From: Calditrichota bacterium
Lineage (GTDB): Bacteria > Electryoneota > Electryoneia > Electryoneales > Electryoneaceae
Length of the DNA: 58,727 bases
Direction of reading: 5' to 3'
NCBI GenBank assembly: GCA_018263585.1
Contig: JAANWZ010000045.1
Coordinates: 1-58,727 of the forward strand
In this document: positions 5,236-6,350 of the stretch, one piece after another
Numbering within the stretch: the stretch's first letter is position 1
How the letters are laid out: each line of letters starts with the position of its first letter
The notes under the pieces: model-generated
What the model was told of the DNA's origin: nothing
The model's database searches: none
What the model saw: only the letters and a program-made list of their open reading frames with translations
Program-made: the position numbers and the translations under genes

Positions 5236-6231
5236 ATGCCAACGCCGACGCCACCGACGATCGCGGTTGCCGGCGCGAGCGGTCTCGTCGGGCGCACGCT
5301 GCTCGCGCTGCTCGCCGGCGACGAGTGGCGCGCGCACCCGGTGATCGCATACGCGTCGGAGAAACGCGCCGGCCGGTTCGCCCGCCGCGGCGACGAACGG
5401 ATCGAGCTGCGCGCGTTGCCGGAAGCGCCCCCGCCGCACGTTGACTACCTGCTCAGCGCGCTGCCCGCGTCGGTGGCGCGCGAGGTCGTCCCCGGCTGGC
5501 GCGATGCGGGCGTGCGCGTGATCGACAAGAGCAGCGCGTTCCGCACCGATCCCGCCGTCCCGCTCGTCGTCCCCGAAGTGAACGCGCGGGAGATCAGTGA
5601 CGCCGTCCGCCTGATCGCGACCCCGAACTGCACCACGATCCCGATCGCCGTCGCGCTCAAGCCGCTGCTCGACGAGGCGGGGTTGGTGGATGTGCGCGCG
5701 ACCAGTTTCCAGGCTGTCTCCGGCGCCGGCGCGGGCGGGTTGCGCGCGTGGGAAACCGAGCTCCGTGGTGAAACCGACCCGGCGAGCCCGTTCTCGGAAC
5801 CGATCCACGCGAACGTGATCCCCGTGATCGGCGCGCTCGACGAGCACGGCAGCGCGTCCGAAGAGCGGAAGGTCGCCCGCGAGCTGCGCAGAATCCTCGC
5901 GCTCGCGCCGTTGCCGGTGGCCGTGACCGCGGTGCGCGTGCCGGTCGCCGCCGGGCACGGGATCGCGGTCGAGGCCGGCCTCGCGCGCGAACTGACGCCC
6001 GCACGCGCGATCGAGTTGTGGCGGGAGATGCCCGGTGTGGTCGTCCACGAGGATCCGTCCGACCCGCCGACCCCGCTCGACTGCGCCGGCTGCGACGAAG
6101 TGTTCATCGGCCGCGTCCGGCGCGCACAACACCGAGACAACGCACTCCTGTTCTGGGCCGTCACCGACAACCTGCGCAAAGGCGCCGCGACAAACGCGCT
6201 CCAGATCCTCGCGCGCTGGCTCAAAAACTAG
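5236..6231 (+). CDS. asd: Aspartate-semialdehyde dehydrogenase
   Basis: ATPNCTTI active-site Cys motif, SFQAVSGAG, and DNLRKGAATNA near the C-terminus. The last 9 nt (AAA AAC TAG) lie in repeat C1. Confidence 0.85.
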   Translation: MPTPTPPTIAVAGASGLVGRTLLALLAGDEWRAHPVIAYASEKRAGRFARRGDERIELRALPEAPPPHVDYLLSALPASVAREVVPGWRDAGVRVIDKSSAFRTDPAVPLVVPEVNAREISDAVRLIATPNCTTIPIAVALKPLLDEAGLVDVRATSFQAVSGAGAGGLRAWETELRGETDPASPFSEPIHANVIPVIGALDEHGSASEERKVARELRRILALAPLPVAVTAVRVPVAAGHGIAVEAGLARELTPARAIELWREMPGVVVHEDPSDPPTPLDCAGCDEVFIGRVRRAQHRDNALLFWAVTDNLRKGAATNALQILARWLKN

Positions 6232-6350
6232 GGACAGACCCCAATTTCCTGATTATTAGCCGGGGAGGCATTGTAACGAGTCGCATGGAGCCTGTGCACG
6301 GCAGTCCATTCCACCTACTGGCTGGAAATTGGGGTCTGTCCCTAGTTTTT
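6223..6350. repeat. Family C long hairpin, copy C1 (27-nt perfect arms, 74-nt loop)
   Basis: AAAAACTAGGGACAGACCCCAATTTCC at 6223-6249 and its exact reverse complement at 6324-6350. Sits between the convergent asd and glnE genes and overlaps both stop codons. Confidence 0.92.

Follow-up and report, generated by a model that had tools for sequence, protein, structure and literature searches.

A short palindromic repeat, here called family C, supplies the last codons and the stop of three genes in a 58,727-nt contig (JAANWZ010000045.1) of the Calditrichota bacterium assembly GCA_018263585.1; the window below means this whole stretch. Family C is read here as inverted pairs of one 27-nt unit resembling repetitive extragenic palindromic (REP) sequences, of the class that flanks HUH/Y1 transposases similar to REP-associated tyrosine transposases (RAYTs), and not as a transposon with a body; we put the probability of this reading at about two in three. 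The evidence comes from the anatomy of the three copies in the window, from relatives in which the same genes end differently, and from near-identical units that flank Y1 transposase genes in other genomes. An initial annotation of this DNA knew of no element class with such behaviour; however, REP termini have been published as donors of TAG stops (PMC3733652) and miniature inverted-repeat transposable elements (MITEs) of Coxiella overlap gene 3′ ends (PMC5896051). With both the element class and the donation of stops already described, family C represents no new class of element. What is new is this particular unit, its presence in an uncultured lineage and in several phyla, and a doublet apparently built around a retained native spacer between asd and glnE.

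Family C arms and the gene ends beside them

In copy 1, the left unit AAAAACTAGGGACAGACCCCAATTTCC occupies 6223-6249 on the plus strand and its exact reverse complement forms the right unit at 6324-6350, on either side of a 74-nt spacer (6250-6323, 55% G+C) that is probably native asd-glnE intergenic DNA. The asd gene (aspartate-semialdehyde dehydrogenase, 331 aa, plus strand, 5236-6231; Pfam Semialdhyde_dh and Semialdhyde_dhC) ends CTC AAA AAC TAG at 6220-6231, its last two codons and stop (6223-6231) lying within the left arm. On the minus strand, glnE (glutamine synthetase adenylyltransferase, about 880 aa, 6342-8984; Pfam GlnE and GlnD_UR_UTase) ends CCG AAA AAC TAG at 6353-6342, and the right unit provides AAA AAC TAG in its frame (6350-6342). 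The probable start of glnE is the ATG at 8984, from alignment to a relative's GlnE; the open frame extends to 10250 because of high G+C content alone. An unrelated gene, for an alpha/beta hydrolase identified with Pfam (335 aa, plus strand, 25971-26978), finishes GGT AAA AAC TAG (GKN-TAG) within the left unit of copy 2. Direct reading of the sequence thus agrees with the initial annotation on the perfect 27-nt arms, the 74-nt loop and all three gene endings.

A pattern search allowing up to three mismatches finds six arms in the window, arranged as three inverted pairs (6223/6324, 26970/27012 and 31025/31092), compared with 0 matches expected by chance from 100 dinucleotide-preserving shuffles. 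Copy 2 (26970-27038) has units at 26970-26996 and 27012-27038 around a 15-nt spacer, both with the private variant CCCCTATTT, and copy 3 (31025-31118) has units at 31025-31051 and 31092-31118 around a 40-nt spacer, both with GAAAACCAGGG. The consensus of the unit is (G/A)AAAAC(T/C)AGGGACAGACCCC(A/T)ATTTCC. Copy 3 carries CCAG/CTGG instead of CTAG, contains no TAG and gives no gene a stop; it begins 5 nt past the TGA (31017-31019) of polA (plus strand, 28275-31019) and ends 48 nt ahead of the start of a subtilase gene (plus strand, 31167-32570). At copy 2, the TAG (27037-27039) of a gene for a HAD-family hydrolase (minus strand, 27037-27822) overlaps the outermost 2 nt of the right unit; these three genes, too, were identified with Pfam. 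Five gene ends therefore touch family C arms, three of which finish inside the arm. The earlier proposal that the arms lie at gene ends and terminate them stands for these three, but HAD and polA, two of the five adjacent ends, keep native stops, and copy 3 donates none.

Each copy folds to a 27-bp hairpin on either strand (−58.5 to −69.1 kcal/mol, z −6.3 to −10.7), with stems bracketed by A5 and T5 and U4-5 tracts past the stem on both strands. This agrees with the initial description of a bidirectional hairpin, for which a role in termination is plausible. Rfam gave no match at gathering score in the window, and a relaxed search returned generic miRNA-precursor hairpin models, far below threshold. 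Private variants are common to the two arms of a copy: in copy 2 position 21 has T for A, and in copy 3 position 1 has G for A and position 7 has C for T. Three variant positions are symmetric, and the one asymmetric difference is at position 2 of copy 2. Across ten doublets from several genomes, 9 of the 27 stem pairs change on both sides, a value reached in 0 of 500 shuffles and low in controls with slid partners; these doublets were chosen for complementarity, and the figure supports covariation of the stem but does not prove it.

The spacers of copies 1-3 (74, 15 and 40 nt) have no similarity to one another, and none was found to other repeats of the window or to relatives. Three unrelated spacers are a misfit with a transposon that has a body, and the earlier view of the hairpin as one inserting element is not upheld. 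No direct repeats of the type left by target duplication were seen to flank any of the three copies, which fits single-stranded movement of the RAYT type. The outer AAAAC is kept in all six arms, including those of the non-coding copy 3. Because it is also kept in the inverted repeats that flank transposase genes (below), the outer AAAAC belongs to the repeat and not to a target site. An independent assembly of the asd locus of the same organism (L016; Logan contig SRR11308165_537791, 2850 nt) ends exactly where the spacer ends and the right arm starts; a break within the hairpin is expected for a repeat, and inverted repeats break short-read assemblies. The contigs of run SRR11308165 that carry asd and the hydrolase are identical to the window.

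Comparison with relatives, limited to those that are 46-63% identical, indicates that the Lys-Asn endings of asd, glnE and the hydrolase are not ancestral. The closest asd proteins (60-63% identical) end W-M-S-L, W-L-A-L, W-I-M-C or longer, with the pattern W-(M/L/I)-x-x-stop, and none ends KN. Relatives of glnE end ...GALQ or ...TEAL, with 10 residues past the conserved LY(D/E), compared with 12 in the window, the last two of which are KN. Relative L017 keeps the gene order of the window and lacks the repeat, and the tails of its asd and glnE overlap by 9 nt; in L018-L020 the two genes are separated by a TPR gene. The 12-nt core GGGACAGACCCC has no match in the 84 kb of syntenic loci L017-L020. 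Relative L023 (GCA_020444425.1) keeps the order atpC, hydrolase, HAD, polA, S8 peptidase, with family C in neither the hydrolase/HAD spacer, which holds a conventional terminator-like hairpin, nor the polA/S8 peptidase spacer. Its hydrolase ends ...FFDQH, and its HAD and polA ends (GCG TAG and CAT TGA) are identical to those in the window. Since the orthologue too ends GCG TAG, the HAD stop beside copy 2 is native by this comparison, as is the polA stop beside copy 3. None of the relatives of the three proteins ends KN and the element is absent at all three sites, as the initial claim of donated endings implied.

Each arm is 27 nt, or nine codons, and at copy 1 the native stops appear to be pre-empted rather than replaced. 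When the left arm alone is deleted, asd ends ...RWL-TGA at the first three bases of the spacer (6250-6252). When the right arm alone is deleted, glnE ends ...KRSPSQ-TAG at a stop in the spacer two codons past the arm (6315-6317 on the minus strand, CTA on the plus). The joint chance of both immediate in-frame stops is 0.004 in composition-preserving shuffles of the spacer. Among excisions that remove both arms, over all boundaries from 6214-6232 to 6340-6359, none gives both genes the short endings that single-arm deletions give, and with both arms and the spacer removed the glnE frame stays open for more than 280 codons. Read most simply, the 74 nt represent the former asd-glnE spacer, in which both former stops survive, and the arms are in-frame insertions just upstream of these native stops. 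The survival of the TGA and TAG in frame makes the arms unlike a rescue of truncated genes. The earlier claim that the arms re-terminate genes thus holds in that KN-TAG is encoded by the arm and is not ancestral, but at copy 1 the native stops appear still to be present. The apparent retention of this spacer provides a route to studying how REP doublets form.

The motif AAA-AAC-TAG occupies only one of the three frames of the arm, and all three coding overlaps within arms are in this frame (chance about 0.04 under random phase). This suggests either selection for minimal change to the C-terminus or phased insertion.

The unit in other genomes and beside Y1 transposases

An exact-match scan of 185,579 species genomes for AGGGACAGACCCCWATTTCC, for which about two chance hits are expected as an estimate for a pattern of this length, returned 15 loci (L001-L015). 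The hosts are Burkholderiales, Nitrosomonadales, Thauera, Stutzerimonas tarimensis, Salinisphaera, two gammaproteobacterial metagenome-assembled genomes (MAGs), Solibacteraceae, Hydrogenedentota and Sphingomonadales; one locus is a probable chance match inside a Corynebacterium gene. Doublets with T-runs and loops of 7-19 nt make up many of the 15 and solitary units others; the sibling cores GGGGTCAGACCCC, AGGGACAGTCCCT and GGGGCAGACCCC are present in the same loci. REP-type repeats are usually species-specific. That the exact 20-mer AGGGACAGACCCC(A/T)ATTTCC is present in Beta- and Gammaproteobacteria, Solibacteraceae, Hydrogenedentota and Sphingomonadales therefore suggests that the repeat system has passed from one phylum to another. 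RAYT groups span many bacterial classes, with horizontal transfer proposed over long periods (PMC5581495), which makes the cross-phylum occurrence notable rather than revolutionary.

The bases that match CTAG/CCAG of the window are TCAG, ACAG or ATAG in other genomes. As the TAG is absent from copy 3 and from most other lineages, it is not a designed feature of family C; it is presumably used where it happens to be in frame. A BLAST search with a synthetic doublet against 72,556 plasmids gave no match, a scan of viral contigs for the unit found none, and a search of the published literature by 12-mers and sibling cores gave nothing relevant.

The link to transposases is drawn from these genomes. 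Di Nocera, De Gregorio and Rocco (2013) described RAYT-like tyrosine transposases (TIRYT) flanked by inverted repeats with the motif GGGGWSAS, which also occur as dimers and clusters, and named such systems ‘TIRYT/TIRtron’, relatives of REP/REPIN-RAYT (PMC3733652). Their TIRYT protein alignment was used in tblastn searches of the window and all other sequences gathered here. A RAYT-like gene or remnant is present in 3 of the 15 loci, which had been retrieved by the 20-mer alone: a frameshifted gene in L010 (6441-7017), a truncated gene in L008 (4763-5263) and an internally deleted remnant in L003 (6373-6718). The chance that at least three of 15 random 8-kb loci contain such a gene is about 1e-4, assuming up to three per genome. 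Pfam Y1_Tnp (PF01797) is passed by the L010 fragment and by the full-length homologues P0127 and P0154, with no Pfam match for the L008, L003 and C-terminal L010 fragments. The NCBIfam model NF047646, ‘REP-associated tyrosine transposase’, is the top match for L010, L008, P0127 and P0154, all of which score below its cut-off (for P0127, 73.7 against 80).

Units flank the Y1/HUH transposase in inverted orientation in L003, L010, L025 and L026. In L003, the ATG of the remnant is preceded at a distance of 87 nt by GGGACAGACTCCAATTTCC, one mismatch away from family C, and an inverted partner of this unit lies directly after the TAG. In L010, a doublet of GAAAATAGGGACAGTCCCTATTTTCC lies upstream of the gene and a downstream unit (6351-6379) encodes RKTGTVPIF-TGA. 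In L025 and L026, the upstream repeat is AAACCGGGGTCAGAGTGCACTTTCC and the downstream repeat GAAAAGTGCACTCTGACCCC encodes ESAL-TGA (about 1340-1370 and 1232-1251, respectively); 63 of 120 transposase homologues end [EK][ST]A[LHT]. The inverted repeats of L010, L025 and L026 share AAACC-GGG-xCAGA-xxxC-AxTTTCC, and alignment of the units gives one layout: AAA(A/C)C, (A/G)GGG, xCAGA, xxxC, A(A/C)TTTCC. The sibling variant GGGGTCAGACCCC in L008, L010 and L012 matches GGGGWSAS fully. In three of these loci (L010, L025 and L026) the RAYT-like transposase genes themselves draw their last residues and TGA from the downstream repeat unit.

A gene map of the window by codon-position G+C gives 42 genes and five convergent junctions; family C is at two of these five and at one of the 36 junctions of other kinds (Fisher p = 0.035). 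Among units of other phyla, the A-rich outer end usually adjoins or overlaps the stop of the neighbouring gene, as in TAAATCAGGG, TAATTCAGGG, TAGAAATCAGGG and TGAGAAAATCAGGG, and stops lie 0-15 nt from the unit in most copies. Of 11 other arms judged to have a flanking gene end, with the three in-arm stops excluded, 8 have the stop 6-11 nt ahead of the AGGG anchor; some stops were read by eye since automatic frame choice was unreliable. REP termini are known to supply TAG stops to flanking open reading frames (ORFs), and REPs favour convergent and unidirectional junctions (PMC3733652). The position of the arms at gene ends and convergent junctions agrees with this published placement.

Three loci show other arrangements of the unit. 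In a gammaproteobacterial MAG (L005, 4262-4335), an imperfect doublet with the exact 27-mer of copy 3 lies between genes that by eye appear to be nusG and rplK, and the TAG of the apparent nusG abuts the arm (TAGAAATCAGGG), an arrangement like that at the HAD gene of the window. In a soil metagenome contig (L021, 1440-1517), a family C doublet lies within the 5′ end of a frame that by eye appears to encode an RlpA-like lipoprotein. This frame reads MKGQTPISAAGRTRIVFGNWGLSLVLLALAAALASC, ending in a signal peptide and lipobox, and its ATG abuts a truncated arm and overlaps the TGA of the upstream gene; units may thus also be recruited as N-terminal coding sequence. In Stutzerimonas tarimensis (L003, 3880-5000), a tandem array, interrupted by a run of N, is made of composite blocks of about 300 nt with GGAAATCCGGGACAGACCCC or GGAAATCGGGGCAGACCCCGATTTT units. 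Its blocks also hold GTAGGAGCGAGCTCGCTCGCGAA, which we take to be Pseudomonas-type REPs.

Two further repeat families were seen in the window. A third palindromic family, GGACGCTTGCTCGCAAGCGTCCCCT, is found at 86-110, 12052-12076, 37981-38005 and 52531-52555, often beside CATGCCCGCGGGGACGG...CCGTCACCGCGG, with further sites at 11922-11962, 14746-14869 and 52398-52438. It fills two more convergent junctions (37922/38219 and 52349/52625), so that four of the five hold a repeated palindrome; the fifth, without one, is between an unnamed gene and a universal stress protein gene whose stops are 3 nt apart (34712-34716). The second repeat family is 229 nt long and 90% identical between its copies at 22077-22305 and 40515-40743, with a CCCCCGCAC...GTGCGGGGG hairpin followed by TTCAGGATGACAC. 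Partial copies lie at 364-403, 25417-25464 and 50624-50663, with further sites at 23598-23692 and 32566-32660. This family fills enlarged spacers of the ATP synthase operon (atpA-atpG, atpG-atpD and atpD-atpC), which are much shorter in relative L023, and is also found upstream of lon and of a gene for an MFS transporter.

Proposed history and alternatives

Units would have been acquired at gene 3′ ends in this lineage, their A-rich outer end touching the stop or lying just ahead of it. At asd/glnE, the old convergent spacer would have gained one unit at either end, both as in-frame insertions of 27 nt (9 codons). With an outer end of AAA-AAC-TAG, translation of both genes would stop at the third codon of the unit, and the old stops would lie unused just inside the spacer. 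Transposition through single-stranded DNA is established chemistry of the IS200/IS605 and RAYT family, and a RAYT-like enzyme may have moved the units by this route in this organism. The 27-bp stem with A5/T5 would act on either transcript as a bidirectional terminator and/or a protective 3′-end hairpin, and judging from these flanks it probably terminates or stabilises both convergent transcripts. Where stops lie inside the stem, ribosomes would have to melt it, and expression may fall as a result; Liang, Rudd and Deutscher reportedly saw in 2015 that E. coli REPs within 15 nt of a stop lower expression. We infer the mobilisation in this organism, the order of events, and the effects on termination and expression from these patterns.

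Several observations weigh against this account. The tblastn search found no Y1 transposase in the 58.7-kb window, which leaves the cognate enzyme putative for this organism, and GGGGTCTG of family C agrees with the published GGGGWSAS at seven of eight positions. The loops vary (15, 40 and 74 nt) where the spacer of a REPIN is usually fixed, and the GTAG tag of classical REPs is absent from the unit. For two units to have entered independently at one spacer and yet carry identical private variants, arm-to-arm conversion or selection for pairing must also be assumed. Nor is a stem of 27 bp around a loop of 15-74 nt canonical for an intrinsic terminator. At copy 2, the hydrolase has no in-frame stop in or near the spacer, so that the picture of a retained native stop is not uniform. 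Finally, the copies available for study are three, and a metagenome scan for the 24-mer added two further contigs, one of which duplicates L005. A bolder version is unlikely. In it, a RAYT-like enzyme delivers single 27-nt units in a defined phase next to stops, here directly ahead of the native stops at both ends of a convergent spacer, and so installs a portable ‘Lys-Asn-stop plus terminator arm’; in addition, the exact 20-mer would have spread recently between phyla, contrary to the usual species-specific, vertically inherited picture of REPIN-RAYT systems.

The rival that survives best takes the whole arm-spacer-arm as one mobile hairpin that entered overlapping asd/glnE 3′ ends, cut both genes and rescued them through its own CTAG stops. 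With an overlap of 9 nt, as in L017, any insertion would truncate both genes; furthermore, no native hydrolase stop is left near copy 2, and the arms of each copy share private variants as if they travelled together. These points are outweighed by spacers that share nothing, by the lack of a short glnE ending when both arms are removed (the frame runs open for over 280 codons), by the immediate in-frame stops that appear in both genes when each arm is removed alone (chance 0.004), and by the native stops of HAD and polA. We regard a single mobile hairpin as improbable, although far less so than the explanations that follow.

If family C were a classical MITE, descended from an IS630-like or IS5-like DDE insertion sequence with TA or CTAG as its target, the TAG would be a duplicated target on native stops. 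The palindromic CTAG at the arm boundary of copies 1 and 2 is what such an element predicts, and in a genome of 67% G+C its TA-rich targets could be expected to concentrate at stop codons. In copy 3, however, CCAG on the left faces CTGG on the right, an inverted and not a direct arrangement, so that the boundary bases are part of the inverted repeat and not a duplicated target; duplication of TA or CTAG was rejected on this pair. The AAAAC beyond CTAG is kept in six arms and in other phyla, there are no direct repeats at any copy and no conserved body, the ORFs beside eight solitary arms are housekeeping genes by Pfam with no DDE transposase among them, and plasmids and viral contigs gave no match. 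A DDE origin is thus very unlikely.

Hardly more credible is that the hairpins are ordinary bidirectional intrinsic terminators that arose in place and never moved, their likeness reflecting convergence on A-tract, stem and T-tract. All copies are at gene ends, with A5/T5 flanks and strong stems, and L023 has its terminator-like hairpin in the equivalent hydrolase/HAD spacer. Convergence cannot, however, give identity over 27 nt at three loci and over an exact 20 nt across Proteobacteria, Acidobacteriota and Hydrogenedentota. The unit is also associated with Y1 transposase genes, and loops of 15-74 nt with 27-bp stems are atypical; a consensus terminator scan of the window did not call the family C hairpins.

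The least likely explanation, raised in the initial annotation as a target-site preference, is that Lys-Asn-TAG is native to the genes and that the 9-mer AAAAACTAG, which precedes the GGGACAG core at four of six arms, is the preferred target of the element; it is refuted by the same relatives, in which no asd, glnE or hydrolase orthologue ends KN, and GAAAACC or AAACC also precedes the core in the non-coding copy 3 and in inverted repeats upstream of transposases.

Read as REP-like units, the three copies offer a clear example of how REP-type repeats reshape C-termini and stops in compact, G+C-rich genomes, with one hairpin closing two convergent housekeeping genes. A unit that had not been named before, present in Beta- and Gammaproteobacteria, Acidobacteriota, Hydrogenedentota and this uncultured lineage, is now tied to RAYT-like tyrosine transposases. 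Annotators should not take C-terminal residues and stops within such units as ancestral, and assemblies tend to break there.

Comparison with known systems

Intrinsic terminators lie past the stop codon and combine a G+C-rich stem (about 5-15 bp) with a short loop (3-8 nt) and a 3′ U-tract. Family C resembles bidirectional terminators in its A-tract, G+C-rich stem and T-tract, readable on both strands between convergent genes. It differs from them in its 27-bp stem, its loops of 15-74 nt, the stops inside the stem and its repetition across phyla.

Small inverted-repeat elements that overlap gene 3′ ends include the Correia elements of Neisseria and the RPE of Rickettsia. In Coxiella, QMITE1 and QMITE2 reach 1-50 bp into the 3′ ends of genes, once donating 33 C-terminal residues (PMC5896051). 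Like these MITEs, family C is a small non-coding inverted repeat that can donate C-terminal residues and stops, with stable stems able to serve as signals for RNA processing or termination. Such MITEs have a conserved body and usually direct repeats, whereas family C has neither.

REPs, their arrays (bacterial interspersed mosaic elements, BIMEs) and the REPIN-RAYT systems of E. coli and Pseudomonas (Bertels and Rainey; PMC5581495) are closer. They too are extragenic, palindromic, placed at gene 3′ ends and enriched between convergent genes, and their inverted doublets give long hairpins. A single-copy HUH/Y1 enzyme is believed to move these repeats, and donation of TAG stops by REP termini to flanking ORFs is documented too. 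In contrast to these systems, family C has no GTAG or CGTC tag, its unit is weakly self-complementary (GGG-ACAGA-CCC), and its doublets (three of three) have unfixed spacing of 74, 15 and 40 nt with unrelated spacers. Its 20-mer is found in several phyla, whereas REPINs are usually species-specific. The copy number seen for family C is three in 58.7 kb, all at gene ends.

The terminal inverted repeats (TIRs) of TIRtrons provide the other close comparison. The window differs from them in that GGGGTCTG agrees with GGGGWSAS at 7/8 positions, no transposase gene is present in it, and the host is apparently an uncultured lineage, with the closest asd 60-63% identical. Like these TIRs, the family C unit is short, joins a GGGG(T/A)C.G core to an A/T-rich outer part, shows no target duplication, and occurs alone, in inverted dimers and in clusters. 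Furthermore, the Y1 transposase genes of L003, L010, L025 and L026 are bordered by a near-identical unit (one mismatch) and by sibling units, and the 3′ unit gives the transposase its own last codons and stop.

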